DNA from: Acidimicrobiia bacterium
Lineage (GTDB): Bacteria > Actinomycetota > Acidimicrobiia > Spongiisociales > ZC4RG35
Direction: 5' to 3'
DNA: 64,000 bases
Assembly: GCA_040878345.1 (NCBI GenBank)
Contig: JBBDML010000009.1
Coordinates: forward strand, 42,693 to 106,692
The notes beneath the pieces are model-generated. The model did not search any database and was not told where the DNA came from. It saw only the letters and a program-made list of their open reading frames with translations. A program made the translations under genes and the position numbers. This document shows, piece after piece, positions 11,463 through 57,528 of the stretch; position 1 is the stretch's first letter, and every line of letters begins with the position of its first letter.

Positions 11463-11709
11463 GACCAGGGCGAGGCGATCGCTCTGATCCCACATCAACA
11501 GGCGGCACGCGCACCCCTTCCGATCGGTCGAGTGCCAAACCAAATCCACTACTTCCCGGTAGTCCAGAAAAAGGGTTAGACGACCGATCGCCTCCTCTTT
11601 ACTCATCTCCTGAACATCCGACTCGGACAGGCGAACCCGTGCTGCGAACGCGAAATCTCGAATGAGCAGTCACGGAGAATGCTGACATGTGCCACCCTCC
11701 AAGGCTGCC

Positions 11710-11719
11710 CAATCGATTG
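11710..11719. promoter_or_regulatory. Putative LacI-family operator CAATCGATTG
   Basis: Perfect palindrome upstream of the CMD/CocE operon; TAGGAT -10-like box at 11736. Confidence 0.55.
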
Positions 11720-11769
11720 CCCGGCCCGGTTTCATTAGGATGGGTGCAGAGACCGGAAGGAGAACGGTG

Positions 11770-12399
11770 ATGACGGGTAAACCGCGCATCAGCTACGTGC
11801 CGCTCGACGACATGACCTCGGAGATGCGGGCAGAGATGGAGCGCTGCGCCCGGGAGGGGACTCCCCGGCCCGAGAGCTCGGCCGTTCGGGCCCATGTCCC
11901 CAACGCCTTCTGGTCCTTCGCCAACAGCTGGAAGGATCTCTTCCGAGATGGGGTGGTCGACCACGACATCAAAGAGCTGTGCCGCGTCTACGTGTCCCGT
12001 TCCGTCAAGTGCGAATACTGCGGGAATCAGCGCTCCGAGAAGGGACGCTCGATGGGGCTCACCGAAGGCAAGTACGACGACCTGCTCAACTTCGAGTCGT
12101 CGCAGGAGTACGACGACCGACAGAAGGCAGCGCTGGCCTATGCCGAGGCGATCACCTGGCATCTCGACACCGACGATGCGTTCTGGGAGCGTCTCAACCA
12201 GCACTTCGACGAAGCCGAACTGGTGGAGCTCGGGTGCTTCGTCGGTCTCACCATGGGTCAGCAGAGCTGGTTGCGTCTCCTCGACATCGATCACCATCAG
12301 GTGATGCCCGGGACCATGGCCGCCATGGCCCCCGGTTTCGAGAGCGCAGGGGACCTGGCCCAGTCGAAGGCTTCCGAGGACTACTGGGCCAAGTCCTGA
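11770..12399 (+). CDS. Carboxymuconolactone decarboxylase/AhpD-like protein
   Basis: IKELCRVYVSRSVKCEYC (CxxC), QKAALAYAEAI, HFDEAELVEL. Confidence 0.75.
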   Translation: MTGKPRISYVPLDDMTSEMRAEMERCAREGTPRPESSAVRAHVPNAFWSFANSWKDLFRDGVVDHDIKELCRVYVSRSVKCEYCGNQRSEKGRSMGLTEGKYDDLLNFESSQEYDDRQKAALAYAEAITWHLDTDDAFWERLNQHFDEAELVELGCFVGLTMGQQSWLRLLDIDHHQVMPGTMAAMAPGFESAGDLAQSKASEDYWAKS

Positions 12400-12419: not shown

Positions 12420-14180
12420 ATGCACATCGATTGGGACGTCCCCATCGAGACGGACGACGGCCTGATACTCCGAGCCGACGTCTTCCGACCAGATCCGGAC
12501 GGTCGGTATCCGGTCATCCTCTCCTACGGGCCCTACGCCAAGGGTCTCGCATTTCAGGAGGGCTACCCCGACCAGTGGCGTCTGATGACGACCCAGCATC
12601 CCGATGTAGAGGCGGGCTCGAGCAACCGCTACCAGAACTGGGAGGTGGTCGACCCCGAGAAGTGGGTGCCCGACGGCTACGCAGTGGTCCGCGTCGACTC
12701 CCGGGGTTGCGGGCGCTCCCCCGGCTATGTCGACGTGTTCTCCCAACGGGAGACCGACGACTTGGCGGCCTGCATCGAGTGGGCCGGAGTCCAGCCGTGG
12801 AGCACCGGAAAGGTGGGTCTCAACGGGATCTCCTACTACGCAATCAACCAGTGGCACGTCGCCTCCCGACAGCCGGAGCACCTCGTCGCCATGTGCGTGT
12901 GGGAGGGGGCGGCCGACTGTTATCGGGACATGACCCACCATGGCGGAATCCTCTCCACCTTCTGGGCGAACTGGTACGACATGCAGGTGAAAACGGTCCA
13001 ACACGGTCTCGGCGAACGTGGCGCCGTGAGCCGGGTCACCAGGGTCCCCGTCACCGGCGACATCACCTTGAACCAGGCGGAGCTGGAGCGGAACCGGGCC
13101 GAATTGGGAGCAGACGTCCGTGAGCATGCCCTCGACGACCAGTTTCATCGGGACCGCTCGCCCGACTGGTCGAGGGTCGACATCCCTCTCCTCACGGCGG
13201 GCAATTGGGGAGGACAGGGGCTGCACCTGCGTGGCAACGTGGAGGGCTTCGCCCGCTCGGCCACCCGGCGCAAGTGGCTGGAGCTCCACGGCCTCGAGCA
13301 TTGGACTCACTTCTACACCGACTACGGGGTCGGCATGCAGAAGCGGTTCTTCGCCCGGTTCTTGAAGGACGCGGACAACGGATGGGACGACGAGCCGCCG
13401 GTCCGACTCCAGATCCGGCGTGTCGACCGCTACGAGGAGCGCACCGCCGGGGGGTGGCCTCTGCCCGACACCGAATGGACCACTCTCTACCTGGACGCCG
13501 GCGATACGACCCTCTCACATCAGGTGCCTGAGGTCCGACGAGAGATCCGTTACGACGCCGCGGGTGACGGCGTGACGTTCCTACTCGATCCGCTCGACGT
13601 CGAGACCGAGATCACCGGTCCGGTCGCGCTGAGGCTGTTCGTCTCGTCGGCCACCAGAGACGCCGACATATTCGCGGTGGTGCGTATCTTCGATACCCAT
13701 GGCGACGAGGTCACGTTTCAAGGCGCCATCGACCCGCACACCCCGGTGGCTCAAGGCTGGCTGCGGGCATCGCACCGACGCCTCGATGCGGAGCTGTCTC
13801 TCCCCTACCGCCCGTATCACACCCACGATCGCGTTGAGCCGCTGACGCCGGGCGAGATATACGAGCTCGATGTCGAGATCTGGCCGACGTCGATCGTCGC
13901 CCCGGCCGGCTACCGCCTCGGACTGTCTGTCCGGGGGAACGACTACCGGTACGAGGGAGATCTTGGCGGGGCATCGCTGAGCACCTTCAAGAACCGCCTC
14001 ACAGGATGCGGGCCATTCCTCCACGACGACCCGCTCGACCGTCCAGCCGACGTCTTTGGCGACGGGGTGACGCTTCACACCGGCCCCGATCACAGGTCCT
14101 CATTGTTGTTGCCGGTGATACCCCGTTCTCGACGGTCGGCTACCGGCCACTCACCGCTGGAGGAGCCGTCGACGACCTGA
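12420..14180 (+). CDS. CocE/NonD family hydrolase
   Basis: LRADVFRP, GYAVVRVDSRG, nucleophile GISYY, C-terminal EITGP/GWLRASHR domain. Confidence 0.9.
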   Translation: MHIDWDVPIETDDGLILRADVFRPDPDGRYPVILSYGPYAKGLAFQEGYPDQWRLMTTQHPDVEAGSSNRYQNWEVVDPEKWVPDGYAVVRVDSRGCGRSPGYVDVFSQRETDDLAACIEWAGVQPWSTGKVGLNGISYYAINQWHVASRQPEHLVAMCVWEGAADCYRDMTHHGGILSTFWANWYDMQVKTVQHGLGERGAVSRVTRVPVTGDITLNQAELERNRAELGADVREHALDDQFHRDRSPDWSRVDIPLLTAGNWGGQGLHLRGNVEGFARSATRRKWLELHGLEHWTHFYTDYGVGMQKRFFARFLKDADNGWDDEPPVRLQIRRVDRYEERTAGGWPLPDTEWTTLYLDAGDTTLSHQVPEVRREIRYDAAGDGVTFLLDPLDVETEITGPVALRLFVSSATRDADIFAVVRIFDTHGDEVTFQGAIDPHTPVAQGWLRASHRRLDAELSLPYRPYHTHDRVEPLTPGEIYELDVEIWPTSIVAPAGYRLGLSVRGNDYRYEGDLGGASLSTFKNRLTGCGPFLHDDPLDRPADVFGDGVTLHTGPDHRSSLLLPVIPRSRRSATGHSPLEEPSTT

Positions 14181-15171
14181 TGGCGAGGGTGGGTGAGAGG
14201 AGGACCCGACCGGGAGAGACGACCGCTCCGGCGATGAGCGCAAGGAGCGTGCTGGCCGCATCGGCGCCCATCTGGCGATAGGGAACCCGAACGGCTGTCA
14301 TCGGGGGCTGCATGAGGTCGAGAAGGGGAATGTCGTTGTAGCCGGTGATGGAGACATCCACTCCGATGACCTTGCCCAGGGATCGCACCGCCCGGTAACA
14401 ACCCAGACCCAACAGGTCGTTGGCCGCCACGATCGCAGTGATGTGTGGATGACGTCGGAGCAGGGTGAGGGCGGCGGTGGTCCCCGGCTCAACCTGATAC
14501 CACTCGGCCTCCTCGACGAGATCGATGTCGGCGTCGAGCCCCACGGTCGTCATCCAGTCGAGAAACGCGTCGCGACGGTCCTTGCCCGTCGATACCCACG
14601 AGGGTCCCGCCACATGACCGATGCGCTCGTGGCCCAACTCCCTCAGGTGTCTCACCGCCAACCCGATCCCAGCGTGATCGTCGCCGACGATCGCCGGGAT
14701 GGAATCGTCGTCGACCGACCGGTTGACGAGGACCATCGATGCGTCTCGTTGCGCCTGCCGGGCGACCTCGGAGACCACTCGGCCTGGAGTCGCCAGGATG
14801 AGCCCGTCGACGTGGCGCTCCAGCATGTCCTCCACGAGGCTGTCGGCGTGACTCGGCCCCATGTCGGCGTTGCCGATCAGCACCGAGTAGCCCTCCTCGA
14901 CCAGCACCGACTCAGCACCGGCGATGATCGGTCCGAAGAGGGGGTTCTCGACGTCCGGGATGATCACACCGACCGACATGGTGCGGTTGGTTCGCAACCC
15001 TCTCGCCAGTGGATGCGGTCGATAACCGAGCCTCCGGGCGGCTTCGGCGACCCTCTCCACGGTCTCCGGGTTGACGATCGAGGCGGTGCTCGGATTGAGG
15101 GCGCGTGATGCCGTTGAGATATGCACCCCTGCCTCGCGGGCCACGTCTTTCAATGTGGTTCGGGTCGACAC
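14140..15171 (-). CDS. LacI family transcriptional regulator
   Basis: [28 protein letters not shown] hinge, ANDLLGLG. Confidence 0.95.
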   Translation of the reverse strand: MSTRTTLKDVAREAGVHISTASRALNPSTASIVNPETVERVAEAARRLGYRPHPLARGLRTNRTMSVGVIIPDVENPLFGPIIAGAESVLVEEGYSVLIGNADMGPSHADSLVEDMLERHVDGLILATPGRVVSEVARQAQRDASMVLVNRSVDDDSIPAIVGDDHAGIGLAVRHLRELGHERIGHVAGPSWVSTGKDRRDAFLDWMTTVGLDADIDLVEEAEWYQVEPGTTAALTLLRRHPHITAIVAANDLLGLGCYRAVRSLGKVIGVDVSITGYNDIPLLDLMQPPMTAVRVPYRQMGADAASTLLALIAGAVVSPGRVLLSPTLAIRSSTAPPAVSGR

Positions 15172-15291: not shown

Positions 15292-15301
15292 CAAACGATT
15301 G
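15292..15301. promoter_or_regulatory. Putative LacI-family operator CAAACGATTG
   Basis: In the divergent intergenic region between lacI and the dehydrogenase gene. Confidence 0.55.
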
Positions 15302-15357: not shown

Positions 15358-16293
15358 ATGGCCGAGAACAAGCACCCGCATCGGGTGGGCTGGATCGGGA
15401 CGGGCCGGATGGGTGCCGCCCTCATCGAGCGACTGCTCGCCTCCCATGTCGATCTCTGGATCTACAACCGGACTCGCTCCAAGGCTGAGCCCTTGGCCAC
15501 CAAAGGTGCCAAGATCGTGGACTCACCTGACGACCTCGCCGAGCGTGACATCGTCTTCACCATGGTCGCCGGTCCCGAGGATGTCCTCGAGGTCACGGTA
15601 GGGGAACGAGGTGTTCTCTCTCGCTCCGATCACCGGCCTGGGATCATCGTCGACTCGACGACGATCGACGCCACCACCTCGCAGACTCTCACGGAGAGAG
15701 CGGCCGAGCTCGGGACGGCGGTGCTGGCAGCCCCGGTGTCGGGCAACCCCAAAGTGGTGAGATCGGGCCGTCTCACCACGGTGGTGTCGGGGCCTAGGGA
15801 AGCATACGAGACGGTGCTCCCCTACCTCGAGTGTTTCGGACGCAAAGTCACCTACGTGGGCGCGGGTGACGAGGCGCGGTTGGTGAAGATATGTCACAAC
15901 CTGATGCTCGGCGTCGTCACTCAGTCCATGGCCGAGATCACTCTCCTCGCCGAGGCCGCCGGGGTGTCGAGGTCCGACTTCCTCGAGTTCCTCAACGACA
16001 GTGTGATGGGCTCCACCTTCACCAGGTACAAGACCCCGGCATTCGTCAATCTGGACTACAAGCCGACATTCACCTGGCATCTGCTCCGTAAGGACTTCGA
16101 GTTGGGGCTCGAGACCGGCAGGCTGCTCGATGTGCCGCTGCCGACCGCCGCCCTGGTGCACCAGATCGTCGTGGACGGCATCGGGCGCGGATACGGGGAC
16201 CAGGACTTTGCCTCGATGCTGAGCCGGCATGCTGAAGGCGCCGGCATCGACCTGGTCCCTGAGGGCAAGGACGTCTCCGACGGTCTGAGTTGA
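15358..16293 (+). CDS. NAD(P)-dependent oxidoreductase, 3-hydroxyisobutyrate dehydrogenase family
   Basis: GWIGTGRMG, APVSG, VKICHN catalytic Lys, KDFELG. Confidence 0.85.
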   Translation: MAENKHPHRVGWIGTGRMGAALIERLLASHVDLWIYNRTRSKAEPLATKGAKIVDSPDDLAERDIVFTMVAGPEDVLEVTVGERGVLSRSDHRPGIIVDSTTIDATTSQTLTERAAELGTAVLAAPVSGNPKVVRSGRLTTVVSGPREAYETVLPYLECFGRKVTYVGAGDEARLVKICHNLMLGVVTQSMAEITLLAEAAGVSRSDFLEFLNDSVMGSTFTRYKTPAFVNLDYKPTFTWHLLRKDFELGLETGRLLDVPLPTAALVHQIVVDGIGRGYGDQDFASMLSRHAEGAGIDLVPEGKDVSDGLS

Positions 16294-16324: not shown

Positions 16325-17215
16325 TCAGAGGTGCTCGTCGAGATAGGTGAGAACACCGTCGATGGCCGCCTCGGCCACCTCGTTGACCTCGTATTCGCCG
16401 TCGGGACCACGTAACGGGTACACATAGCCGTGGAGGTCGTGGTCCCAGCTGACCCACTCCACCGGCTTGCCCGCCTCGGCGAGCAACTGGTACGAGACCC
16501 GAAATATCCCCTGGAGGTGGTCATCGTCCCTCCCCATGACCAGGATCGGGGTGTCGATGGTCGAGATCCGCTCCATCGCCTTCTTCATGTCGATGCGGGA
16601 GCGGACCTTCTCGGCCTCGACCATCTGCATCTCCTCGATGTTGCGCATCCCGGTGTCGGGCTCGACGAAGGCGGACTCGTCGGGGGTCAATGCGAGGAAC
16701 TCATGCGCCGCCGGCTCGGATGCCACCGCCGCCTTGATGCCCTGGTACTCCGAAGTGATCTTGAGCACCATCTCCCCGCCATGGCTCATCCCGATCAGAC
16801 CGATCCTGTCGGCGTCGATCCGAGGGTCCTCCTTGAGGTGCTCGACGATGGCGATCTCATCCTCGTACTCCAGGGGTGAGCGGTTGAACATGTCGCGGCC
16901 CTGTCTGATGTCCCGGATCAGCCGCCCTCCGTTGTGGTAACCGAGCTCGACCTCGGCCCGATAGCGAATCCAGGCACAGGCATAACCTCGCTCGAGGAGA
17001 CGGTCCATGATGCATCCCCGGTTGGCGACGGCGTCCCTGATCCAGGCCATCCCTCCCCCACCGTTCCCGGAAGCGAGCAAGACCAAAGGGTGGGGGCCGT
17101 CGCCCGACGGCACACGGAGGCCGATGGGGGCATAGAGACCGTCCCAGGTCTCCACATAGCCGAGCTCCACGGGGATGTCGGAGCCGGCTACCTCCTCGAT
17201 CGTGACTGCGTTCAC
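16325..17215 (-). CDS. Alpha/beta hydrolase (S9/dienelactone hydrolase-like)
   Basis: DPRIDADRIGLIGMSHGG elbow, GRDDD, HGY; AAGGAG RBS. Confidence 0.75.
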   Translation of the reverse strand: MNAVTIEEVAGSDIPVELGYVETWDGLYAPIGLRVPSGDGPHPLVLLASGNGGGGMAWIRDAVANRGCIMDRLLERGYACAWIRYRAEVELGYHNGGRLIRDIRQGRDMFNRSPLEYEDEIAIVEHLKEDPRIDADRIGLIGMSHGGEMVLKITSEYQGIKAAVASEPAAHEFLALTPDESAFVEPDTGMRNIEEMQMVEAEKVRSRIDMKKAMERISTIDTPILVMGRDDDHLQGIFRVSYQLLAEAGKPVEWVSWDHDLHGYVYPLRGPDGEYEVNEVAEAAIDGVLTYLDEHL

Positions 17216-17285
17216 CTCAGCTCCTTCTCGGCCTGCGCAAACGATAGGGCATTAACCTACCTGGCATGATCGACGACGGACCACG

Positions 17286-39165: not shown

Positions 39166-39167
39166 GC

Positions 39168-49658: not shown

Positions 49659-49895
49659 TTGAGATTGGTCAGGTATCACGCCGATGACGGCCCCCGGGCC
49701 GGGGTGCTGGATGGCACCGACGTCGTCGACTTCTCCGCCACCCTCGACGTGCCAGACGCCACGGTGGGGCCGATCGACATGGCCATGGATTCAGGGTTGT
49801 CTGCGACGGCGCTCGAGGGGACCAGGGTGGCGTTGTCGTTTTCAAACCAGAGGGCACGATGGGTAGCGAGGTTCGAGGCTCGAGGAGGAGGATGA
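49659..49895 (+). pseudogene. N-terminal fragment of a fumarylacetoacetate hydrolase family gene
   Basis: AAGGAG RBS; MRLVRYHADDGPRAGVLDGTDVVD is a typical FAH-family N-terminus, but the ORF ends after ~78 codons with no catalytic domain. Confidence 0.5.
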
Positions 49896-49896: not shown

Positions 49897-50745
49897 ATGG
49901 CCCGTTTTGCGGTGAAGACACCGACACACCACACCACATGGGACCGGATGCTGGAGGTGTGGCAGGCGGCCGACGAGATCGAGCTCTTCGAGTCGGCCTG
50001 GAACTTCGACCACTTCTACCCGATCCGGGGCGACACCAATGGGCCATGTCTCGAGGCGTGGGTGACCTTGTCCGCCCTGGCACAGGCGACCAAGCGGATC
50101 CGGGTGGGGACCATGGTAAGTGGCATGCACTTCCGACACCCGGCGGTGCTGGCCTCGATGGCGGCGTCGCTCGACATCGTGTCGGCCGGTCGTCTCGAGA
50201 TCGGTCTCGGCGCCGGCTGGAATGAGATGGAGGCAGAGGCCTACGGAATGGAGATGGGCACCGTCGACGAGAGGATGACCCGCTTCGAGGAGGGCACCGA
50301 GGTGATCCACCTGCTCCTCACCCAGGAGCACACGGATTTCGACGGCCGCTTCTTCGACCTCACCAACGCACGCAACGAGCCCAAGCCCATCCAGAGACCC
50401 CGCCCGCCGATCGTGATCGGGGGCAGGGGGGAGAAACGGACCCTGCGTCTCGCCGCCCGATTCGCCTCGATGTGGGACGCCCTGTTCGTCGAGGAGGAGA
50501 AGGACGAGTGGCTCCGGCTCCGCGGCGTGTTGTGGGCTCATTGCGAGGATGTGGGACGCGATCCGGGCGAGATCTCCTGTTCCAGTCACCTCTCAGTGAG
50601 CCCGGAGCCCGACCCGGCCGACGTGGCATCTCGTTCCGCCGCCATGTTCGATGCCGGGATCGACGTGGTGATTCTCGGTTTCACCGGGGCGCACGACGGT
50701 GACACCGTCCGGGCCATCGCCGGGGCGCTGAGCGCCATCAGTTGA
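49897..50745 (+). CDS. LLM class (probably F420-dependent) oxidoreductase
   Basis: WNFDHFYP, EAWVTLSALA, RHPAVLA, GLGAGW, PPIVIGGRGEKRTLRLAARFA. Confidence 0.88.
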   Translation: MARFAVKTPTHHTTWDRMLEVWQAADEIELFESAWNFDHFYPIRGDTNGPCLEAWVTLSALAQATKRIRVGTMVSGMHFRHPAVLASMAASLDIVSAGRLEIGLGAGWNEMEAEAYGMEMGTVDERMTRFEEGTEVIHLLLTQEHTDFDGRFFDLTNARNEPKPIQRPRPPIVIGGRGEKRTLRLAARFASMWDALFVEEEKDEWLRLRGVLWAHCEDVGRDPGEISCSSHLSVSPEPDPADVASRSAAMFDAGIDVVILGFTGAHDGDTVRAIAGALSAIS

Positions 50746-51611
50746 GCGGAGCCCTTTGGGCCCTGGTGGCTGCCGTCGGGTTCGCATTCCTCCAGGCCTC
50801 GAATCGGAAGGTGAACCAACTCGTCGACGCCTACCGGACCGCTTTCGGGTTGCTGGTTGCCGTCGAGATCGTCCTCTTGGTGCGCGCCCTCGTCCTGGGT
50901 GACCTGGACCTGTTGTTGTCGGCGCCACTGTCCGCCGTCCTCATCTTCGGAGCGACCACGCTGTTCCACTTCATCGGTGGGTGGACCCTGCTCGCCCTGA
51001 GCCAGCAGAAGATCGGTGTGGCCCGCACCGCCGCCCTGGTGTCGCCCGCCCCCATCATCGGCACGTTGGTGGCGGCGGCCGCCCTCGACGAGCCGCTCAC
51101 CTTCGCCATCGGCGGCGGCGTGCTCCTCGCCGTCGTGGGTGTGGCGCTGATCTCCCTGAGTGGAGGCGCCCCCGGCACCGAGGGCTGGCGCCGGCCCTGG
51201 CTGGCGCTGACCGTGGCGTTGATCTGGGGGTCCACCCCACTCCTGATCCGTATCGGTCTGGAGCGGTTCGATCACCCCGTGGAAGGGCTCACCATCGGGC
51301 TGGCCTCCAGCGTGGTGGTCTATGCGCTCATCCTCACTCTCATGCGGGGATGGCGAGGCCCGGTGCCGGGCGCCGCAATACGCTGGATCATGATCGGCGG
51401 GCTCTGCGGTGCCCTGGCGGTATCGGCGCAATGGGTCTCGTTCGATCTCACCACCATTGCCGTCTCCATCACCATCCAGCAGCTCTCGGTGCTCTTCGTC
51501 CTCGCGCTGGTGCCGATCATGTTCAAACAGTCATTCGAGCGGATGAACCCGCGGTTCTTCGGTGGTGCTTTCCTGGTGCTCATGGGCGCCACCATCGTCC
51601 TCTTGTCCTAG
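50742..51611 (+). CDS. DMT/EamA family transporter
   Basis: About 10 TM helices in two repeats, LDEPL motif. Confidence 0.8.
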   Translation: MSGALWALVAAVGFAFLQASNRKVNQLVDAYRTAFGLLVAVEIVLLVRALVLGDLDLLLSAPLSAVLIFGATTLFHFIGGWTLLALSQQKIGVARTAALVSPAPIIGTLVAAAALDEPLTFAIGGGVLLAVVGVALISLSGGAPGTEGWRRPWLALTVALIWGSTPLLIRIGLERFDHPVEGLTIGLASSVVVYALILTLMRGWRGPVPGAAIRWIMIGGLCGALAVSAQWVSFDLTTIAVSITIQQLSVLFVLALVPIMFKQSFERMNPRFFGGAFLVLMGATIVLLS

Positions 51612-51660
51612 TGGTCTGTCGCTCAATTGATGCGTAGCTATTTGGGCGACGGGCCAGTAG
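51608..51660 (+). repeat. ~50-bp palindromic REP/MITE-like element, copy 2
   Basis: CTAGTGGTCTGTCGC...GCGACGGGCCAGTAG; overlaps the TAG stop of the DMT gene; inverted copy at 32941. Confidence 0.75.
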
Positions 51661-51708
51661 ATCATCGTGGGGCGATCACGGCGGTGAAACCACTTGAATG
51701 ACGGGGCC

Positions 51709-52161
51709 ATGACCGACTTCATCGTCGACCCCTCCACACTCGCCCTACAGATCACCGGGCTCGTGCCCCAGGGTGGGAGCCACGTCCGTCAGGTCCTCCA
51801 CGACGAGATCGAGGCCCGTCTCCCCCGCGACCCGGGGTCACGGGTCAACATCCAGCTCTCCGAGCTGAACCCGGGCAGAACCGCGTCCTGGCACATCCAC
51901 AATGGCGTCGTCTACTTCGTCCTGCTCCGGGGCATCATCACCCTCCAGTACGAGGGGCGGAGCGAGCACTACTCGGCGGGCGACGTCTACACCGAGCCGA
52001 TCGGGGTGGTGCATCGGGCCCTGAATCCGCATCCCGACATCCCCGCATCATTGCTCGGTTTCTGGGTCACCGCCGCCGACCGGCCCCATATAAGCGAGAC
52101 CGGCGAGCCGGGGTGGGCTCCGAGCCCGACGACCCACCCCGCCCTCGATCAGACCGCTTAG
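51709..52161 (+). CDS. Cupin domain protein
   Basis: ASWHIHNG, EPIGVVHRALN. Confidence 0.75.
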   Translation: MTDFIVDPSTLALQITGLVPQGGSHVRQVLHDEIEARLPRDPGSRVNIQLSELNPGRTASWHIHNGVVYFVLLRGIITLQYEGRSEHYSAGDVYTEPIGVVHRALNPHPDIPASLLGFWVTAADRPHISETGEPGWAPSPTTHPALDQTA

Positions 52162-52850
52162 ACGCTCACCGAGATCGGGCTCAGCGGGACGAGCTCGAAT
52201 GTGATCTCGTCTCCCGGGTGCACCTTTATAGGTTGGATGACCGAGCCGACGATCACCACGTCTCCGGCTCCGAGCCGCTCCCCGGCCGCCCGTAACAGAG
52301 CAGCCGTGTGGCCGAGGACCGAGACGATGCGACCGGTGAGGGCCTCGAGATCCTCCGTGTCGGCGATCTCTGATCCGTTTCTCGAGATCCGGGCCCGCAT
52401 CCCGGCGACGCTGCCATCGACACGGGAATGGTCCGGCGGACCGAGGACCACGGCGCGATGGAAGATGTTGCCCTCGAGGACCTGCCCGATGTCCTCCACC
52501 GGGCTGTCGACGTCGGCGAGCTCGATTGCCGCACCGAGACCCGAGATCGACTCCACCACCCGGTCCGGCTCGAGCACATCGCTGCCCAGGTAGACCGCGA
52601 TCTCCGGTTCGGCCACCGGGTCGACCCAACCCTGGCACGAGATCGTCGACCCTGGCGCCTTCCTGCTCGATTCCGGGAGAAAGCCGACTAAGGGCCCGGT
52701 GAGCCCCAGCTTTTCCAGCCAGACCGGCGCCCCGAAAGCGAGCTTCCAGCCGATGGTCCCCTCGCCCCGCTCCAGCACCCGCCGACGCTGATCCAGCATC
52801 CGTCGCATCGCTTCCCCCACCACCGGGTCGTCCCACCCCGGCGTGGTCAT
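52158..52850 (-). CDS. 2-keto-4-pentenoate hydratase/FAH-fold protein
   Basis: IGWKLAFG, AEPEIA, AAIELAD, LGAGDVVIVGS. Confidence 0.8.
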   Translation of the reverse strand: MTTPGWDDPVVGEAMRRMLDQRRRVLERGEGTIGWKLAFGAPVWLEKLGLTGPLVGFLPESSRKAPGSTISCQGWVDPVAEPEIAVYLGSDVLEPDRVVESISGLGAAIELADVDSPVEDIGQVLEGNIFHRAVVLGPPDHSRVDGSVAGMRARISRNGSEIADTEDLEALTGRIVSVLGHTAALLRAAGERLGAGDVVIVGSVIQPIKVHPGDEITFELVPLSPISVSV

Positions 52851-53160
52851 GTGGCTTCGGCCTCGTAACCTGTGTCCTCGAGCGCCCCGGCCCCACTCCA
52901 ACCCCAGACCAGCACGACGTCCTCCTCGCCGGTGTTGTCGAAACCGTGCCAGTGCCCGCGCGGGGTGAACACCACATCACCCTGTCGCGCCGGCTCTGGG
53001 TCGTGGTCGGTGTAGATCATGCCGTTTCCCTGGAGGACGATGAAGAACTCGTCGGCCAGATGGTGCCGATGACGGTCATGTCGCCCCCCGGGCGGGAGCA
53101 CCGTCCAGCCGAGGAGGAAGTCCTCCGAGCCGGCACTGTGCTTGTCCACCAGGAACTTTG
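52847..53160 (-). pseudogene. Cupin gene, 5'-truncated and fused to the upstream dehydrogenase
   Basis: KFLVDKHSAGSEDF...HDRHRHHLADE...PRGHWHG intact, but no start or RBS of its own; overlaps the upstream ORF by ~85 nt. Confidence 0.65.
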
Positions 53161-54026
53161 AGCAGGTGATAGACATCGAAGACGGTCACGAAGTCGCGGT
53201 GGTCGATACGACGCCCCCGGCAGGCGTTGAGGAGCTCGTTGGCCACGGCGGCGAGCGGCGCCGGCGAGCCTTGGCGTCGGGCCACCTCGAGGGCGAGGAT
53301 CATGTCCTTCTGTTGCAGGGTGACGTCGGCCAGCGGCTTGTCCGGCATGCCGCCCTCGAGGATGAAGGGCCCGCGATACCCCATCACCGGCGAGGCGACC
53401 ACACTCTTCAACATGGCGTCGACGGCGACCTCACGGTCGACACCGCCCTTCTCGGCCAGGGCCACCGACTCGCAGAAGGCCACCATCTCCACGATGAGGG
53501 TGAGGTTGACCGCGATCTTCATCTGCACCGCGGTCCCCGGGCCACCGATGTAGCTCACCTTGGAGCCGATGTCGTGGAGCACCGGCGCCACCCGCTCGAA
53601 GGCGGTCAGGTCACCGCCCACCATCGTGGAGGCGCTGCCCTGGGCGAGGGTTATCGGGCTTCCCGAGATCGGTGCGTCCAGCATGGTCAGGCCGGCGGCC
53701 TCGAACTCGGCGCTGATCGCCCGACTCACCTCGGGGTCGATCGTGCTCATGTCGGGGTAGACCGAGCCGGGGCCGAGACCGGCGATCACTCCATCGGGAC
53801 CCAGCGCCACCGACCTCACCGCGGCGCCGTCGGTCACGATCGAGAACACCACCTCAGATGCGGAAGCCACCGCCCGCGGCGTGTCCGCCCATCTCATGCC
53901 CTCCTCCACCAGGGGCCATGCCTTCGACTCGGTCCGGTTCCACCCGGTGACATCGTGTCCGGCGGCCAGCAGCCGGGGGACGATGCCCTGACCCATGTCA
54001 CCCAGACCTATGAAGCCGATCCTCAC
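53076..54026 (-). CDS. 3-hydroxyisobutyrate dehydrogenase family oxidoreductase (aberrant read-through C-terminus)
   Basis: GFIGLGDMG, DAPISG, MKIAVN, QQKDM; tail after VFDVYHLL is out-of-frame cupin sequence. Confidence 0.85.
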   Translation of the reverse strand: MRIGFIGLGDMGQGIVPRLLAAGHDVTGWNRTESKAWPLVEEGMRWADTPRAVASASEVVFSIVTDGAAVRSVALGPDGVIAGLGPGSVYPDMSTIDPEVSRAISAEFEAAGLTMLDAPISGSPITLAQGSASTMVGGDLTAFERVAPVLHDIGSKVSYIGGPGTAVQMKIAVNLTLIVEMVAFCESVALAEKGGVDREVAVDAMLKSVVASPVMGYRGPFILEGGMPDKPLADVTLQQKDMILALEVARRQGSPAPLAAVANELLNACRGRRIDHRDFVTVFDVYHLLKVPGGQAQCRLGGLPPRLDGAPARGAT

Positions 54027-54101: not shown

Positions 54102-55130
54102 ATGACCACCATCGACATCCACACCCATCTCGCCACCCCGGCGAGCAGGGAGTCGATCGAGCCATACCGCCGCCCCGAGCACGAGCCCTACGACCACTAC
54201 ATGGGAGCGGACTCGGTGGCGCACAACGCCGTGATGCTGCCCGCCATCAGGCCTCTCCTCACCGAGCCGGAGTCACGCATCGAGCACATGGACCGGATGG
54301 GCATCGATATCCAGGGGCTCTCCACGTTCGTCTCCGAGCATTTCTACTGGGCCCCTCCCCGGGTCGGGGCCGAATCGGCCCGGATCCAGAACCACAACCT
54401 GGCGGAGGCGGTGGCCTCACACCCCCACCGTTTCGTCGCCTTGGGGGCGACCGTGCCCCTCCAGGACGTCGACCTGGCGATCGCCGAGATGGATCGGGCG
54501 GTCGACGAGTTGGGGTTCAAGGGTCTCCAGATCGGGGGGACGGTCGACAGACTCGATCTCGACCAGCCCCGATTCCGACCCTTCTGGGCTGCGGTCGAGG
54601 CCAAGGCAGTCCCGGTCATCGTCCACCCCAACGGCTACCCGGAGGGTCAGCGGTTCGGGGACTACTTCATGGTCAACTGCATCGGAAACCCCTTGGAGAC
54701 CATGGTGGCTGCCACCCGGATGATCTTCAGCGGGCTGTTCGAGGAGCACCCCGGGCTCGAGATGATCCTGCTCCACGGGGGCGGCTATCTGCCCTTCTAC
54801 GCCTCACGCTCCGACCACACCTGGAAGGTGCGACCGGAGACCCGGGCCCACATCCCCGATCAGCCACCCAGCCACTACATGAAGATGCTCTACTACGACA
54901 CCGTCGTCTACCAGCCGCTGTATCTGCGTCATCTGTTGGAGGTGGTCGGCGTCGATCATGTCCTGTTGGGCACGGACTTCCCGTTCGACATGAGCGAGAC
55001 CGACCCGCTGGGGCTGATCGCAGCCACCGAGGGTCTCAACGACGCCGACCGGGCAGCCATCTCGGGTGGGAACGCCGCCCGGCTCTACGGGATCGATCCC
55101 GGTGGCAATACCGCCACCACCCCCGTGTAG
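54102..55130 (+). CDS. Amidohydrolase family 2 protein (ACMSD-like, second paralog)
   Basis: DIHTH, IVHP, HGGGYLP, YYDT, GTDFPFD. Confidence 0.88.
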   Translation: MTTIDIHTHLATPASRESIEPYRRPEHEPYDHYMGADSVAHNAVMLPAIRPLLTEPESRIEHMDRMGIDIQGLSTFVSEHFYWAPPRVGAESARIQNHNLAEAVASHPHRFVALGATVPLQDVDLAIAEMDRAVDELGFKGLQIGGTVDRLDLDQPRFRPFWAAVEAKAVPVIVHPNGYPEGQRFGDYFMVNCIGNPLETMVAATRMIFSGLFEEHPGLEMILLHGGGYLPFYASRSDHTWKVRPETRAHIPDQPPSHYMKMLYYDTVVYQPLYLRHLLEVVGVDHVLLGTDFPFDMSETDPLGLIAATEGLNDADRAAISGGNAARLYGIDPGGNTATTPV

Positions 55131-56293
55131 CCGTCGACGGCCACGATCTGACCGGTCACTTCACCGAGATCGACCCCACACACCGCAGGGACCCCCAGCG
55201 ATCGCGCCGTCTCGAAGACATGGGCCGCCGGGCCCCCCAGCTCGGTCACCAGACCGACGGCATCCCAGATCAGCTGTGACAGGTACGGCAGGGCCTGTGG
55301 AGCGGTGACCACCGCCCGTGACGGCGGGCTGACTGCGCCGGCGACATGACGTAGCCCGACGCCGATCCCGCCGGCCGCCGGCACTCCCTGGAATCTGACC
55401 CCATGCTCGAGGACCACCGCCGCCGCCAGATGCGGCTCGATCTCATGGGGACCTTGGGTCGTCATCGCCACTTGCACCACTGGGATCAGGTCGGGCGATG
55501 TGGTCGTGACCGGTACCGGGGTCGGCTCCGGGGGGACGGTCCCCAGCTGCAGGATCCACAACCCCTCGCTCACCCCCCACTCACAACGGTTGTAACCGAA
55601 CCGGCTCCAGGCCGTGGCCAGAGCAGTGCCGATGTCATCGAGAGTCTCCAAACCGACAAGGGCGATGGCGTCAACACCCACCCACCTCCCGCCGGGGTCT
55701 CGGGTCGCGGCCACACCGCGCACCCACCCCTGGAGCAACGGTGCCGGCGTCCCGGTCACCGCCTGGACCCGGATCGTCCCCTCGGCTGTGATCTCGGCGA
55801 CGCCACCCACAACCGGCGCTATCGATGGTTGTATCAGTACCGCCAGAGGGACCGCCCCCGGCTCGATCCCGGATCGGTGCTGTCGATCAAGGGCATCGAC
55901 GGTGAAGACCGAGGCCCAGCAACCCAGGACCGCGTGGGGCAGTTCCTCGGGAGAAACGTCGGTGTATGAGGCGAAGGCCCCGGCCCACACCCCGTCGGAT
56001 TCGAGGGGGCTGGAGGAGCGCACGGCCAGGGTGGCGGAAAGGGCCCTACCGGCCGCCTCGATCTGAGCCGCACCAGGGAGTGGTGTCGTGGTCACTGCCT
56101 GACGGGCACCACCCGACCCACGTCGGGAGAGCACCGATGCTCCGATCTCCATATGGCTCAGCGACACCATGGTCTCGACGACGATCCCGGGAAGGACTGG
56201 AAGACCGTCCCGAAGCCCCCGGGCCAACGCCGCCGCCTTGGCGCCCACCCGCTTCGGATCGAGGGCGGAAGGCTCGTCGAGACCGGTGATCAC
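55085..56293 (-). CDS. Compact PEP-synthase-like protein (nucleotide-binding domain + phospho-His swivel domain)
   Basis: VGAKAAAL, PVLPG, AVRSSSPLE, AGAF, VLIQ; C-terminal TELGGPAAH...ARSLGVPAV...VDGYTG; GTG overlaps the M24 stop. Confidence 0.75.
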   Translation of the reverse strand: MITGLDEPSALDPKRVGAKAAALARGLRDGLPVLPGIVVETMVSLSHMEIGASVLSRRGSGGARQAVTTTPLPGAAQIEAAGRALSATLAVRSSSPLESDGVWAGAFASYTDVSPEELPHAVLGCWASVFTVDALDRQHRSGIEPGAVPLAVLIQPSIAPVVGGVAEITAEGTIRVQAVTGTPAPLLQGWVRGVAATRDPGGRWVGVDAIALVGLETLDDIGTALATAWSRFGYNRCEWGVSEGLWILQLGTVPPEPTPVPVTTTSPDLIPVVQVAMTTQGPHEIEPHLAAAVVLEHGVRFQGVPAAGGIGVGLRHVAGAVSPPSRAVVTAPQALPYLSQLIWDAVGLVTELGGPAAHVFETARSLGVPAVCGVDLGEVTGQIVAVDGYTGVVAVLPPGSIP

Positions 56294-57528
56294 TTCACCG
56301 TGATGATCTCGTGGCTGGCGTAGGTCGACACCAGCTCGATCCCGGTGTCGGTGACATAGAGCATCTCCTCGAGCCGGACCCCATGATCGTGGAGCTTGCC
56401 GTGTTGGGTCTCCAGAGCGAATGTCATGCCGGGCTCGATCTCCACCGGGTAGTCGAGTGACCAGATGCGGGAGATGACCGGCGGGTCGTATTGAGCGAGA
56501 CCGAGGCCATGACCCCAGAAGTTGGCCGCCGCCTGGTCCTCTTCCTCGTAGCCCCACACCTCCTTGGCCGACGGCCACTTGGAGGCGACGTCTGCGGTGG
56601 TGACCCCGGGCTTGGTGGCCTCGATCGAGTCCCACAGCCACTTGTGGGCCAGCTCGTAGGTTTTCTTGTGTTCTTCGGTGGGCTCGCCGCCGACGCAGTA
56701 GGTCCGGTAGACACAGGACTTGAAGCCGTTCCAGGTCAGGGCGGCGAGGTCGACGATGACCAGCTCCCCGGGCCGGATCATCCGGTCGGAGAAGTTCCGC
56801 CAATTGGGCCAGGCGTTGGGGCCAGAGGAGACGATGACGTCCTCCACGTCCTCCACCCCCGGCAGTGAGTACAGCTTCTCGAACCCGAAAGCGGCCACCT
56901 CGTTCTCACTCAGCCCGGGTTTGATGAAGTTGGTGATCTCGTAGTGGACGTAGTCGCAGATGGCGCCGACGATGGAGAATGCCTTGATCTCGTCGGGGCT
57001 CTTGATGGCTCGGGCCTCCATCATCGGTGACATCCCGTCGGTCCAGGTGATGCCCCTGTTCTCGAACTCCCTGATCAGGTTGATGTCGATGAAGTCCACG
57101 CCCAGTGGCTCGTCTCTGACACCGGCCTGCTCGAGATCGTTCATCAGGGCGTTGGCGAACTTGTTCACCTGCTGGTTGGCGGCAGGCCCCACCGCTCCCT
57201 TGATCCAGGAGTAGGAGTAGCGGATGTTCTCCTTGGGGATCCACGGGTTGTGCACCTCGAGATGGTGCCCGATGTCACCCTGCTCGTAGACGATCGGCTT
57301 CTTGCCCCGGGGCAACACCACATAGCGAAGCCCGGGCTTGAGGCGGTTCCACCCCGGGGTCAGGGTGGAGGAGACGTAGCGCATGTTCTCGTCGTAGAAC
57401 AGCAGCAGGGCGCCGAGCCCGTGCCGCTCCATGGCGTCGTGGGCACGCTTCAGCCGCCAGTCCCTGACCGCGGCCCAGTTGATCCCCTCTTTCCAGTCGG
57501 TGCTCAGCGCGAAGAACGCCTCTCTCAT
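56290..57528 (-). CDS. M24 family metallopeptidase-fold enzyme (DddP-like subgroup)
   Basis: RLKRAHDAM...ENMRY N-domain, IKSPDEI, IVD...GFKSCVYRT, GHGLG, ALET, RLEE. Confidence 0.85.
   Translation of the reverse strand: MREAFFALSTDWKEGINWAAVRDWRLKRAHDAMERHGLGALLLFYDENMRYVSSTLTPGWNRLKPGLRYVVLPRGKKPIVYEQGDIGHHLEVHNPWIPKENIRYSYSWIKGAVGPAANQQVNKFANALMNDLEQAGVRDEPLGVDFIDINLIREFENRGITWTDGMSPMMEARAIKSPDEIKAFSIVGAICDYVHYEITNFIKPGLSENEVAAFGFEKLYSLPGVEDVEDVIVSSGPNAWPNWRNFSDRMIRPGELVIVDLAALTWNGFKSCVYRTYCVGGEPTEEHKKTYELAHKWLWDSIEATKPGVTTADVASKWPSAKEVWGYEEEDQAAANFWGHGLGLAQYDPPVISRIWSLDYPVEIEPGMTFALETQHGKLHDHGVRLEEMLYVTDTGIELVSTYASHEIITVK

Follow-up and report, generated by a model that had tools for sequence, protein, structure and literature searches.

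What does a soil bacterium do with a 46-kb block of catabolic and transport genes that fits no described pathway, and do these genes belong together at all? The block lies in a 64,000-nucleotide stretch of DNA from an Acidimicrobiia bacterium (assembly GCA_040878345.1, contig JBBDML010000009.1, positions 42,693 to 106,692), which we call the window and number from its first letter; in our own labels it is C9:42693-106692 of host genome G000. The host is a soil metagenome-assembled genome (MAG) of 2.46 Mb in 39 contigs, 98% complete and with 65% GC, and its nearest named relatives are soil MAGs also called "Acidimicrobiia bacterium". An earlier note, made from the letters of the window, had proposed a co-regulated island for breakdown of an N-heterocyclic compound. 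The follow-up described here recovers the same island as a conserved block in other genera, finds candidate operators for LacI-family repressors concentrated in it, and leads us to read it, on balance, as one horizontally mobile catabolic regulon of soil Acidimicrobiia, probably repressed by two paralogous LacI proteins.

Genes were called by third-position GC and annotated with Pfam and NCBIfam. From 11689 to 57528 the window holds 43 genes (2% of the genome), all for enzymes, transporters or regulators: about 34 enzymes, two LacI repressors, two exporters (TauE and EamA) and one Dpp/Opp-type ATP-binding cassette (ABC) importer, split between a substrate-binding protein (SBP) with two permeases at 36.3-40.1 kb and two ATPases at 46.8-49.4 kb. 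The Pfam and NCBIfam annotation includes no ribosomal, replication, cell-envelope or other housekeeping gene in the island; a tRNA scan of the window placed none there, and an Rfam scan of the window returned no riboswitch or other known RNA. The earlier description of about 46 kb of contiguous catabolic and transport genes without housekeeping functions was therefore accurate, coordinates included. The genes are listed below with strand, assignment and supporting models (E-values unless bits are given).

11770-12399, plus: g12, CMD/AhpD-like protein (YciW-related); PF02627 25.6 bits against a cutoff of 23, NF053654 E 4.3e-16, below cutoff
12450-14180, plus: g13, CocE1, CocE/NonD-family serine hydrolase, start approximate; PF02129 2.4e-41, PF08530 4.6e-33
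14140-15171, minus: g14, LacI1, LacI-family repressor; PF00356 1.1e-12, PF13377 1.7e-32; 89-91% identity in orthologous islands
15360-16293, plus: g15, HIBADH1, 3-hydroxyisobutyrate/tartronate-semialdehyde-reductase-family dehydrogenase, start approximate; PF03446 5.4e-36, below all NCBIfam equivalog cutoffs
16325-17215, minus: g16, alpha/beta hydrolase (DLH/BAAT/S9-like); PF08840, PF00326, PF01738
17286-18245, plus: g17, QOR1, quinone-oxidoreductase/enoyl-reductase-like MDR; PF00107, PF08240
18264-20588, minus: g18, MoCoL, orphan molybdopterin-enzyme large subunit (xanthine dehydrogenase/CoxL family); PF20256 4.3e-78, PF02738 9.4e-64
20650-21630, plus: g19, GFO1, GFO/IDH/MocA oxidoreductase; PF01408 9.8e-25
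21674-22669, plus: g20, 2HADH, D-2-hydroxyacid dehydrogenase family, core gene, start approximate; PF02826 4.9e-44
22666-23430, plus: g21, Creat1, creatininase-family metal amidohydrolase, core gene; PF02633 8.2e-53, PDB creatininases 3e-16; below the MftE, creatininase and IolN cutoffs of NCBIfam
23427-23816, plus: g22, Cupin1, small metal-binding cupin, core gene; PF07883 1.5e-12, weak PDB matches only
23809-24864, plus: g23, GFO2, GFO/IDH/MocA oxidoreductase, core gene; Pfam; 92-95% conserved
24864-25967, plus: g24, FrsA1, alpha/beta hydrolase like 2,6-dihydroxy-pseudo-oxynicotine (DHPON) hydrolase, of the retro-Claisen C-C hydrolase family; PF06500
25919-27745, plus: g25, CocE2, CocE/NonD hydrolase, accessory module; Pfam, NCBIfam
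27742-29322, plus: g26, AmOx, FAD amine-oxidase/phytoene-desaturase-like oxidoreductase, accessory module; PF01593 1.9e-14; sole PDB match 4dgk, 2.3e-13
29361-30551, plus: g27, FrsA2, second FrsA/DHPON-hydrolase-like hydrolase, start approximate; PF06500 1.9e-15
30576-31863, minus: g28, M24_1, pita-bread M24 protein without metal site; PF00557 5.1e-21
31880-32861, minus: g29, DHDPS1, class-I aldolase/DHDPS family; PF00701 1.1e-35
33049-34064, plus: g30, DHDPS2, variable accessory; PF00701 9.8e-10; not in G041 or G042
34068-35048, plus: g31, OCD, ornithine cyclodeaminase/mu-crystallin family, variable accessory; PF02423 2.4e-40; not in G041 or G042
35088-36096, plus: g32, M24_2, broken in the host genome; Pfam; internal loss and frame change near 35.6 kb
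36337-38010, plus: g33, SBP_bac_5 lipoprotein substrate-binding protein; PF00496 6.6e-66, lipobox LVAAC; closest PDB entries generic (DppA/GsiB/HbpA/AgaA)
38155-39165, plus: g34, ABC permease (DppB/NikB-like); Pfam
39096-40097, plus: g35, ABC permease (DppC/NikC-like); Pfam
40145-41149, minus: g36, Amidohydro2_1, ACMSD-like non-oxidative decarboxylase/hydrolase; PF04909 6.1e-37
41169-42380, minus: g37, LVIVD-repeat beta-propeller; PF08309 1.7e-17, no signal peptide seen at the N-terminus; weak match to the Sb-PTE propeller hydrolase 5hrm, 8.9e-07
42575-43588, plus: g38, LacI2, second LacI-family repressor, start approximate; PF00356 6.3e-14, PF13377 4.9e-38
43665-44453, plus: g39, Creat2, second creatininase-family hydrolase; PF02633 3e-53
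44399-45502, plus: g40, Zn-dependent alcohol dehydrogenase (Zn-ADH), IolM/threonine-dehydrogenase-like; Pfam; IolM 213.9 bits against a cutoff of 450
45505-45984, plus: g41, SnoaL-like protein; PF07366 6.3e-12
46043-46789, plus: g42, TauE/SafE-family anion exporter; PF01925 5.3e-22
46806-48173, minus: g43, OppF, DppF/OppF-type ABC ATPase; PF00005, PF08352
48161-49384, minus: g44, OppD, DppD/OppD-type ABC ATPase; Pfam
49617-49895, plus: g45, small open reading frame with a weak Rv2993c-like_N (FAH N-terminal) match; PF10370 E 0.003, below cutoff
49897-50745, plus: g46, F420-dependent LLM-class oxidoreductase; PF00296 2.8e-46, TIGR03560 266.3 bits against a cutoff of 231.4
50742-51611, plus: g47, EamA-family transporter; Pfam
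51694-52161, plus: g48, Cupin2; Pfam
52158-52901, minus: g49, FAH-fold hydratase/decarboxylase (DmpH/DmpE-like, weak); PF01557 1.6e-9, TIGR03218 53 bits against a cutoff of 350
52847-53176, minus: g50, Cupin3, canonical two-motif metal cupin; PF07883 5e-18
53076-54026, minus: g51, HIBADH2; PF03446 8.7e-45
54103-55130, plus: g52, Amidohydro2_2, second ACMSD-like protein; PF04909 1e-42
55085-56290, minus: g53, PEP-utilising-type phosphotransferase with an ATP-grasp N-domain and a swivel His domain; PF00391 8.5e-10, PF01326 1.6e-9; lacks the TIM-barrel domain, is the least conserved island gene (58-65%) and is not in G044
56290-57528, minus: g54, M24_3, DddP-like M24 protein at the right island edge; PF00557 3.2e-34; the most conserved gene of the island (95%)

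Many families are present more than once: CocE/NonD, FrsA/DHPON-hydrolase-like, creatininase, DHDPS and ACMSD-like Amidohydro_2 proteins twice, M24 proteins and cupins three times, beside single OCD, FAH, CMD and LVIVD proteins. Identities between paralogues within the island are 53% for CocE, 40-42% for LacI, 39% for creatininase, 38% for the ACMSD-like pair, 34% for GFO, 33% for HIBADH and 26% for FrsA. Several of these families are found in the host genome at this locus only, as paralogue pairs; CocE1 and CocE2, for instance, are its sole two copies (TIGR00976 241.6 and 238.0 bits against a cutoff of 66.3).

To what extent does the block hold together in other genomes? A scan with Creat1 of one genome per GTDB species gave 55 loci, and all island proteins were compared with these by tblastn. 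Creat1 has at least 75% identity in 39 loci, almost all labelled Acidimicrobiia (some Acidobacteriota or Actinomycetota), and 50-75% identity in 15 others, from Streptosporangiales, Acidothermales, Nanopelagicales and "Actinomycetes"; the remaining one is an unrelated Oceanobacillus match. The homologues thus do co-occur elsewhere, which the earlier note had proposed checking through gene neighbourhoods: 54 of the 55 loci have a Creat1 homologue of at least 56% identity, and the shared gene order, at 75-95% identity, is LacI1 / HIBADH1 / hydrolase / QOR / MoCoL / GFO1-2HADH-Creat1-Cupin1-GFO2-FrsA1-CocE2-AmOx-FrsA2 / M24_1-DHDPS1. Within these loci 2HADH is present in 37 of the 39 close and all 15 distant ones, Cupin1 in 35 of 39 and 13 of 15, and GFO2 in 33 of 39 and 15 of 15, figures that are lower bounds because many loci are cut at contig ends.

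Four long contigs were extended for synteny (genomes G041, G042, G044 and G045). In the other Acidimicrobiia species G041 and G042 the gene order between CocE1 and M24_3 is kept along about 47 kb; in G044 it is almost fully kept, and in G045 the block is rearranged. Of the 43 genes, 37 are matched in G041, 36 in G042, 34 in G044 and 31 in G045, at median protein identities of 84.9%, 84.8%, 86.8% and 77.3%, respectively. The block runs from CocE1/CMD, its left limit, to M24_3, its right limit; these limits coincide with 11.7-57.5 kb of the window, and the QOR2 and Amidohydro_3 genes at 57.6-60.4 kb lie outside it; the boundaries that had been drawn for one coherent island are thus those of the conserved block in G041 and G042. 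Not all of it is fixed. The CocE2-AmOx-FrsA2 module is optional (missing in loci L010, L011, L031, L032, L034 and L037), and the DHDPS2-OCD-M24_2 segment is replaced in G041 and G042. Five genes (2HADH, Creat1, Cupin1, GFO2 and FrsA1) form a core that recurs in distant Actinomycetota. The invariant heart of the system is the operon 2HADH-Creat1-Cupin1-GFO2(-FrsA1), around which the remaining modules vary from genome to genome as accessories.

In distant Actinomycetes this core stands beside LacI, LVIVD, ACMSD-like, HIBADH and FrsA-like genes and two or three M24 paralogues. There the core is joined by genes of either island half, which are therefore functionally linked elsewhere as well. The importers of these distant loci are of the NitT/TauT type (in Streptosporangiales) or MFS_3, and a Nanopelagicales locus of 49% GC has only 2HADH-Creat-GFO-cupin-FrsA and a PF03601 transporter. 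Two unrelated anion-exporter families thus occur at these loci: the island has TauE/SafE (46043-46789), the Nanopelagicales locus the YeiH-type PF03601 (L041 4271-5287). The exporter and importer types are a weak hint of an anionic, possibly sulfonated, product or substrate.

An intergenic scan for palindromes with a central CG identified a candidate operator, CAWWCGWWTG. This palindrome has 13 copies in the genome, eight of them in the island; 0.31 would be expected in the window, and none of 100 shuffles reached eight. All eight island copies are in promoter or divergent regions, and the five other genomic copies are all inside predicted open reading frames. Sites with one mismatch occupy five more island promoter positions, so that the operator family covers about 11 promoter regions, in two flavours with ATCGAT and AACGTT cores. 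The sites are as follows.

11710-11719: operator-like palindrome CAATCGATTG, about 50 nt upstream of the CMD gene at the left island edge
15292-15301: operator CAAACGATTG in the LacI1/HIBADH1 divergent region, kept in G041, G042 and G044
17238-17247: one-mismatch operator CAAACGATAG between g16 and g17
20586-20608: tandem operators CAATCGCTTG (one mismatch, from 20586) and CAATCGATTG (exact, from 20599) in the MoCoL/GFO1 divergent region, conserved
21646-21655: operator CAAACGTTTG directly upstream of the core operon, kept in G041, G042, G044 and G045
29330-29339: one-mismatch operator CAATCGATTT upstream of FrsA2
32999-33008: operator CATACGTTTG in the DHDPS1/DHDPS2 divergent region, conserved
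36277-36286: operator CAAACGATTG upstream of the SBP gene, conserved, with a one-mismatch site at 36346-36355
42368-42377: operator CAAACGTTTG in the LVIVD/LacI2 divergent region, conserved
43621-43630: one-mismatch operator CAACCGTTTG upstream of Creat2
49511-49520: operator CAATCGATTG, within the perfect 14-mer AGCAATCGATTGCT, in the OppD/g45 divergent region, conserved

Sites are kept at orthologous positions in all four extended genomes. Of the 55 related loci, 50 have one CAWWCGWWTG site or more, usually some 20-30 nt in front of 2HADH, and the operator at the CAAACGTTTG position upstream of 2HADH is also found in distant Actinomycetes loci. LacI1 and LacI2 are the sole LacI-family genes found in the host, and each protein combines a LacI helix-turn-helix (PF00356) with an effector domain like that of periplasmic binding proteins (PF13377). 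Together these results give strong computational support to a predicted LacI regulon confined to the island, and what had been put forward as co-regulation now has eight exact candidate operators at promoters behind it. The grouping of the genes is beyond chance: the boundaries match a syntenic block, families are unique to the locus, and the motif is concentrated in it.

Another repeat was considered as a shared operator and rejected. A 51-nt inverted repeat (96%) occurs in two island promoter regions, at 32941-32991 and 51610-51660. It is not used as evidence of co-regulation because its copies are spread genome-wide, as those of an element like a miniature inverted-repeat transposable element (MITE) or repetitive extragenic palindrome, with about 20 copies, complete or partial, over at least 12 contigs of the host (beyond the window, on C3, C4, C11, C14, C15, C18, C19, C22, C27, C31 and C38). 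In its short form, of 51 nt, a TCAATTGA core is enclosed by imperfect 13-nt terminal inverted repeats; in the long forms, of about 165 nt, the two halves are 115-140 nt apart.

Is the island native to its host lineage? The same-genus genomes are too divergent at the DNA level for nucleotide comparison, so a protein search was used instead. A DNA search of them with 11.5-31.5 kb returned nothing beyond one CocE paralogue and Mo-enzyme fragments; DNA synteny of the island and both flanks gave only a few matches, at 65-76%; and the same-genus contigs at a possible pre-insertion locus were short, with no synteny remaining. In the protein search none of 11 same-genus genomes (62-95% complete) had a creatininase-family gene. 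Distribution across the order is patchy: GFO2 orthologues (E <= 1e-100) are in 35 of 200 other genomes, from 10 of 12 families (34 of 199 without G216, which is flagged unpublished), and in 7 of 30 genomes of the same family. Identities were also compared with those of neighbouring genes, taken as the best G000 matches of non-island neighbours.

G041: island median 84.9%, neighbouring-gene median 69.4% (n=9)
G042: island median 84.8%, neighbouring-gene median 68.7% (n=10)
G044: island median 86.8%, neighbouring-gene median 70.0% (n=5)

Island proteins are thus about 15 points more similar across genera than neighbouring genes. RpoB of the host is 86.5% identical to that of same-genus G001, 89% to those of G041 and G042 and 83.9% to that of G044, so the order for RpoB (G041 above G044) is the reverse of the order for the island (G044 above G041). 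Because the island is not found in the same genus, is more similar than the neighbouring genes and ranks the relatives in reverse to RpoB, horizontal transfer within Acidimicrobiia appears likely.

The borders carry a possible trace of the event. Directly left of the island is g11 (10122-11462), which encodes an alpha/beta-hydrolase with an adenylate-cyclase domain. The g11 stretch 10082-11494 has an internally deleted, decayed copy at 60601-60857, 88-94% identical (the first 85 nt at 88% and the last 172 nt at 90%, with about 1.16 kb gone). This remnant is 3 kb right of the island, so that direct repeats bracket about 50 kb, comprising the island and two native-looking genes. The arrangement fits insertion or duplication by homologous recombination; the g11 family is expanded, with 11 matches in the host and up to 41 in relatives. 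We do not regard the contig as chimeric, since two copies of the host MITE lie inside the island and the flanking QOR2 has same-genus homologues.

Several observations weigh against a single mobile regulon. The segment from Cupin2 to M24_3 (51.6-57.5 kb) has no exact operator and so may be regulated differently. Modules are found apart in other taxa, for example the M24_3 module alone on Streptomyces and Paenarthrobacter plasmids, so that the island could serve several related or unrelated substrates. As to mobility, no integrase, transposase or tRNA target was found in the island or at its borders, island GC (0.63-0.68) is like that of the flanks without a shift, GFO2 identity roughly tracks taxonomy, and the background identities come from small samples of 5-10 genes per genome; as an alternative to transfer, the genes could have descended vertically under strong constraint and been lost many times. 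The host genome is a MAG whose gene starts are approximations. Function is a further point: 3 of 45 island entries scanned reach an NCBIfam cutoff (two CocE_NonD and one F420-LLM), all for generic subfamily models, so none of the island enzymes can be identified with one already characterised. The scores of all island proteins stay below the equivalog cutoffs, and every enzymatic role given here is a family-level analogy.

Cultured strains carry partial relatives on plasmids. In Haloarcula ordinaria ZS-22-S1, plasmid NZ_CP119790.1 has about 13 island homologues within about 50 kb (110-157 kb, in the region 110-170 kb; loci L083/L084). They include the importer (OppD 49%, OppF 46%, permeases 40% and 44%, SBP 36%), Zn-ADH (36%), an ACMSD-like protein (31%), AmOx (43%), 2HADH (30%), LVIVD (35%) and GFO2 (42%), the last flanked by two cupins as a cupin-GFO-cupin unit; the M24_1 (53%) and Creat1 (41%) homologues are adjacent. 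The same plasmid region also holds 2-oxoacid dehydrogenase E1/E2/E3 genes, and in it a cyclase-family gene adjoins the ACMSD-like gene. A plasmid of Streptomyces sp. YIM 121038 (NZ_CP030772.1, about 732-749 kb; L086 11618-28012) has the arrangement LacI-SBP / HIBADH-like-M24_3-like-SSADH-E1-E2-flavin reductase-LLM-ABC-ester cyclase, with two CAATCGATTG operators in the divergent promoter between LacI-SBP and HIBADH-M24_3. The HIBADH-like and M24_3-like pair recurs as a module of its own with 2-oxoacid dehydrogenase components. On a plasmid of Paenarthrobacter sp. R1 (L085 11585-16449) this module adjoins annotated sulfonamide genes (sulR and an acyl-CoA-dehydrogenase-family gene) and insertion sequence elements; the passages on peptidases in the paper on the sad cluster (PMC6868719) do not mention the M24 module.

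What chemistry might the island encode? FrsA1 matches DHPON hydrolase (2jbw) over its full length (E 8.1e-45, residues 15-362) and also the retro-Claisen enzymes AntI and Ayg1; the family includes FrsA as well. Amidohydro2_1 matches human ACMSD over its full length (E 2.8e-57, 197.6 bits). The two creatininase-family proteins score 91.8 and 87.5 bits with the creatininase model TIGR04448 (cutoff 235). When M24_1 is aligned to P. furiosus prolidase (1pv9), E, Q, F, E and G stand at the five metal-ligand positions, which we take to be D209, D220, H284, E313 and E327; with four of the five changed and one Glu kept, we label it a metal-free M24 protein. Its match to creatinase 7yto is only E 1.2e-6. 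M24_2 is metal-free by motif, lacking on inspection the GHG, EPG and RIED-type motifs (assumed here, with RLEE, to mark the metal site of the M24 family). It has lost residues 197-225 and changed frame relative to the intact 391-residue G044 orthologue, so that it is either a pseudogene or an assembly error. M24_3 has GHG, EPG and RLEE with a Cys at the second Asp position, and matches PDB entry 4s00 over its full length (E 4.5e-24), although its score with the DddP model is 108 bits against a cutoff of 600. PDB sequence searches with the FAD protein, LVIVD, SBP and Cupin1 gave generic or weak matches and no substrate clue.

The DHPON-type, CocE, creatininase, ACMSD-like and metal-free M24 assignments (the last for M24_1 and, by motif, M24_2) thus agree with those made previously, but the plural "Mo-hydroxylases" do not: the island holds one Mo large subunit (18264-20588), with a SYRGAGR loop of the form-II CoxL-like kind. 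It scores highest with the NCBIfam model for glyceraldehyde dehydrogenase alpha (580 bits, cutoff 790), and the form-II CoxL type is also among its best models. The island has no 2Fe-2S (Fer2_2) or FAD Mo-enzyme subunit, and the five Fer2_2 subunits of the genome are all elsewhere. MoCoL is 78-85% conserved in all full islands, always without Fe-S or FAD partner genes. No three-subunit Mo hydroxylase is present, and the ring hydroxylation proposed for such enzymes is not supported. A complete Mo-enzyme operon lies directly upstream of the window (C9:39.3-41.7 kb). The Pfam scan of the island found no Rieske, extradiol (glyoxalase-fold) or flavin-monooxygenase domain, in keeping with the earlier statement on Rieske and extradiol dioxygenases; its oxygenase-type domains are those of the cupins (only 109-155 aa), the LLM protein and the FAD protein. 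This scarcity fits a mainly hydrolytic ring opening.

From these families we infer each reaction of a possible route and the order of its steps. LacI1 and LacI2 would bind the CAWWCGWWTG palindromes of about 11 promoter regions and so hold some 13 short transcription units silent until an inducer, presumably the substrate or an early intermediate, is present. Uptake would use the Dpp/Opp-type importer, made up of the lipoprotein SBP, two permeases and, from genes at a distance of 6.7 kb, two ATPases. Peripheral ester or amide substituents may be stripped by the CocE/NonD proteins and the further alpha/beta hydrolases, after which GFO/IDH/MocA, 2HADH, Zn-ADH and HIBADH-type dehydrogenases could oxidise secondary-alcohol and 2-hydroxy-acid groups. 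The activated carbonyl products would then be opened hydrolytically, at C-N bonds by the two creatininase-like and the metal-free M24 proteins and at C-C bonds by the two DHPON-hydrolase-like retro-Claisen enzymes. ACMSD-like decarboxylases, cupins, the FAH-fold hydratase and DHDPS-type aldolases might take the fragments to pyruvate-level products, while semialdehydes could be handled by the HIBADH enzymes and the orphan Mo subunit resembling aldehyde oxidoreductases.

We favour such a route, in which dehydrogenation precedes the hydrolysis of C-N and C-C bonds, for a hydroxylated and probably N-containing compound; this is preferred to a plain heteroaromatic or a plain sugar because LacI regulation and polyol dehydrogenases are mixed with C-N hydrolases. 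A more specific form is possible, and we offer it tentatively. The island and its five-gene core, which extend over Acidimicrobiia, other Actinomycetota and, in part, a haloarchaeal plasmid, would then encode an undescribed and largely oxygenase-free way to mineralise a ring compound with hydroxyl groups and nitrogen, such as an aminocyclitol, a polyhydroxy alkaloid or a heterocycle derived from a cofactor and bearing a polyol side chain. NAD(P)-dependent dehydrogenases would here make beta-dicarbonyl or 2-oxo functions before the C-N and C-C cuts, and at least five enzyme families would gain new reactions under one LacI regulon.

Comparison with known systems shows where the island departs from each. 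Like the pAO1 nicotine genes of Paenarthrobacter nicotinovorans, it is an actinobacterial block, mobile in that case and probably in this one, with a Mo-family member, an FAD amine-oxidase-like protein and a C-C hydrolase homologous to DHPON hydrolase, though equally of the family of AntI, Ayg1 and FrsA; unlike them, it has an orphan large subunit in place of the three-subunit NDH/KDH, no flavin monooxygenase, LacI control and a core of creatininase-like, cupin, GFO and 2HADH genes, none of which we believe the pAO1 pathway to use. The Thermotoga maritima inositol route (IolG-IolM-IolN-IolO) shares the logic of dehydrogenation before hydrolysis, with GFO/IDH/MocA, a Zn-ADH and a creatininase-family ring opener of a diketone, and the position of Creat2 next to an IolM-like ADH recalls this set, but the IolG, IolM and IolN models score far under cutoff, no IolO-type epimerase is in the island, many C-N-acting families are added, and the importer is not of a sugar type. 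Ectoine (Doe/Eut) and creatinine catabolism likewise pair a metal-free M24 protein with a cyclic-amide hydrolase or OCD-family enzyme, an adjacency of M24_1 and the creatininase-like gene that is kept as far as Haloarcula. Of the earlier parallel with EutD/EutC, the loss of metal ligands is confirmed for M24_1, and the cyclodeaminase part is not supported: OCD, like DHDPS2, is variable and not in G041 or G042. The DoeA model scores 53.1 bits against a cutoff of 613 and EutC 127.1 against 471.65, both creatininase-like proteins fall short of the creatininase equivalog cutoff, and the Pfam scan of the island found no DoeB/EutE, EutB or sarcosine oxidase. With the ACMS branch of the kynurenine/2-nitrobenzoate pathway the island shares an ACMSD-like decarboxylase near cupins, an FAH-fold DmpH/DmpE-like protein and aldolases, but Pfam recognises no 3-hydroxyanthranilate dioxygenase, aldehyde dehydrogenase or deaminase in it. 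It therefore belongs to none of the pAO1 three-subunit Mo hydroxylase, Thermotoga Iol, ectoine, creatinine or ACMSD/kynurenine sets. Finally, LacI regulons for opine and sugar catabolism have similar 10-14-bp central-CG palindromes at divergent promoters and an importer inside the regulon. What sets the island apart from them is its size, with some 43 genes and operators at about 11 promoter regions, its pair of paralogous repressors, and enzymes unlike those of any sugar or opine regulon described.

The rival explanations differ mainly in which part of the gene set they take as decisive. An aromatic N-heterocycle (a pyridine-, quinoline- or purine-type alkaloid or vitamin), hydroxylated by a Mo enzyme and then opened reductively or hydrolytically, would give a place to the DHPON-hydrolase homologue (as in the nicotine pathway), the ACMSD-like decarboxylases (as for picolinate- or hydroxyanthranilate-type intermediates), the creatininase-like and metal-free M24 enzymes, whose known relatives act on C-N bonds, and the FAD amine-oxidase-like protein and OCD. 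The Mo large subunit near an ene-reductase-like QOR and HIBADH resembles what we take to be the logic of the Eubacterium barkeri nicotinate route, and in Streptosporangiales loci the place of the Dpp-type importer is taken by binding proteins of the NMT1/THI5 type. Yet the single Mo subunit has no Fe-S/FAD partner in four full islands, is best matched by aldehyde-oxidoreductase/form-II CoxL-type models and is not in the minimal core loci, no flavin monooxygenase or ring dioxygenase was matched in Pfam, the regulators are of the LacI type, and the invariant genes are polyol and hydroxy-acid dehydrogenases. The N-heterocycle class had been drawn entirely from family analogies, and the LacI proteins and GFO/2HADH core fit a polyol or hydroxy-acid moiety at least as well; we now consider this explanation improbable. 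A carbohydrate-like substrate (a cyclitol, sugar acid, glycoside or sugar-amino-acid conjugate of the Amadori or opine type), with the creatininase-like proteins as IolN-type ring or lactam hydrolases, accounts for those same genes: two LacI repressors with a AAACGTTT-type operator core, presumably the usual one for this family, two GFO/IDH/MocA proteins, a Zn-ADH with IolM as best model (213.9 bits), two HIBADH, 2HADH, DHDPS-type (KDG-aldolase-like) and FAH proteins, the membership of IolN in the creatininase family, an SBP distantly related to opine-binding AgaA and AccA, and a KDG kinase and KDPG aldolase in the left flank. It is nevertheless unlikely in our view, as the Iol models are far under cutoff (IolN 59.9 and 54 against 245, IolG 127.5 and 109.6 against 355), Creat1 has higher scores for MftE and creatininase, both amide hydrolases, than for IolN, Pfam finds no glycoside hydrolase, sugar kinase or isomerase inside the island, the importers are Dpp/Opp, NitT/TauT or MFS_3 rather than CUT1/CUT2 sugar systems, and three M24 proteins, two ACMSD-like proteins and CocE are left unexplained.

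Alternatively, the island could be a set of independent small pathways for different substrates that travel together and share related LacI repressors. Its transcription units, about 16 by this count, are short, many of them single-gene, and alternate between strands; paralogue pairs, the two operator flavours, the separate occurrence of modules in other taxa and the variable DHDPS2-OCD-M24_2 segment would all be natural in such a set. Against it stand a gene order conserved over 47 kb across genera, the joining of both island halves to the core in distant Actinomycetes and Haloarcula, a single importer whose ATPase genes are separated from the permease genes by two other units, and one operator family over 11 promoter regions, so that we doubt this explanation. 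A biosynthetic or resistance cluster, suggested by SnoaL, AntI/Ayg1-like, cupin, F420-LLM and RPH-like phosphotransferase families, several of which are also known in polyketide tailoring or antibiotic inactivation, and by two exporter-family genes, is very improbable given that Pfam finds no polyketide synthase, nonribosomal peptide synthetase, terpene or other scaffold enzyme, that import depends on a binding protein under LacI repressors, and that hydrolases and dehydrogenases dominate.

Creatinine, ectoine, nicotinate/nicotine, tropane alkaloids/calystegines, riboflavin, mannityl opines/Amadori compounds, sulfonates, diketopiperazines and flavonoids were considered and not adopted as substrates. 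Searches of an open-access library gave no description of the pathway and nothing relevant on creatininase-family ring hydrolases, on creatininase combined with cupin and GFO or with ACMSD, on gene clusters for tropine catabolism, on beta-diketone hydrolase with creatininase, or on PF02633 or LVIVD; with no equivalog reached, the earlier statement that the combination fits no characterised pathway is supported. LacI catabolic regulons are themselves known, and what is new here is a large, conserved, probably mobile one that matches no such pathway. Acidimicrobiia are a plentiful group of soil bacteria of which hardly any are in culture and whose metabolism is little understood. The substrate is likely to be common and ecologically important, since the regulon is kept nearly gene-for-gene in many soil species and has probably been exchanged among them. 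Its identity would give functions to the creatininase-like, metal-free M24, FrsA/DHPON-hydrolase-like, LVIVD and orphan CoxL-like families, and the operator, the two repressors, the SBP and the plasmid loci of cultured Haloarcula and Streptomyces make the question directly testable.

The flanks hold catabolic genes of their own. On the left (1-9725) are a CUT2-type ABC importer, SDR, LLM and aminotransferase genes, the KDG kinase (PfkB) and KDPG aldolase mentioned above and a GntR/FCD regulator, a sugar-acid unit separate from the conserved island. On the right are a cyclase-family (kynurenine-formamidase-like) gene at 63171-63887 and a class-V aminotransferase gene at 61530-62669.

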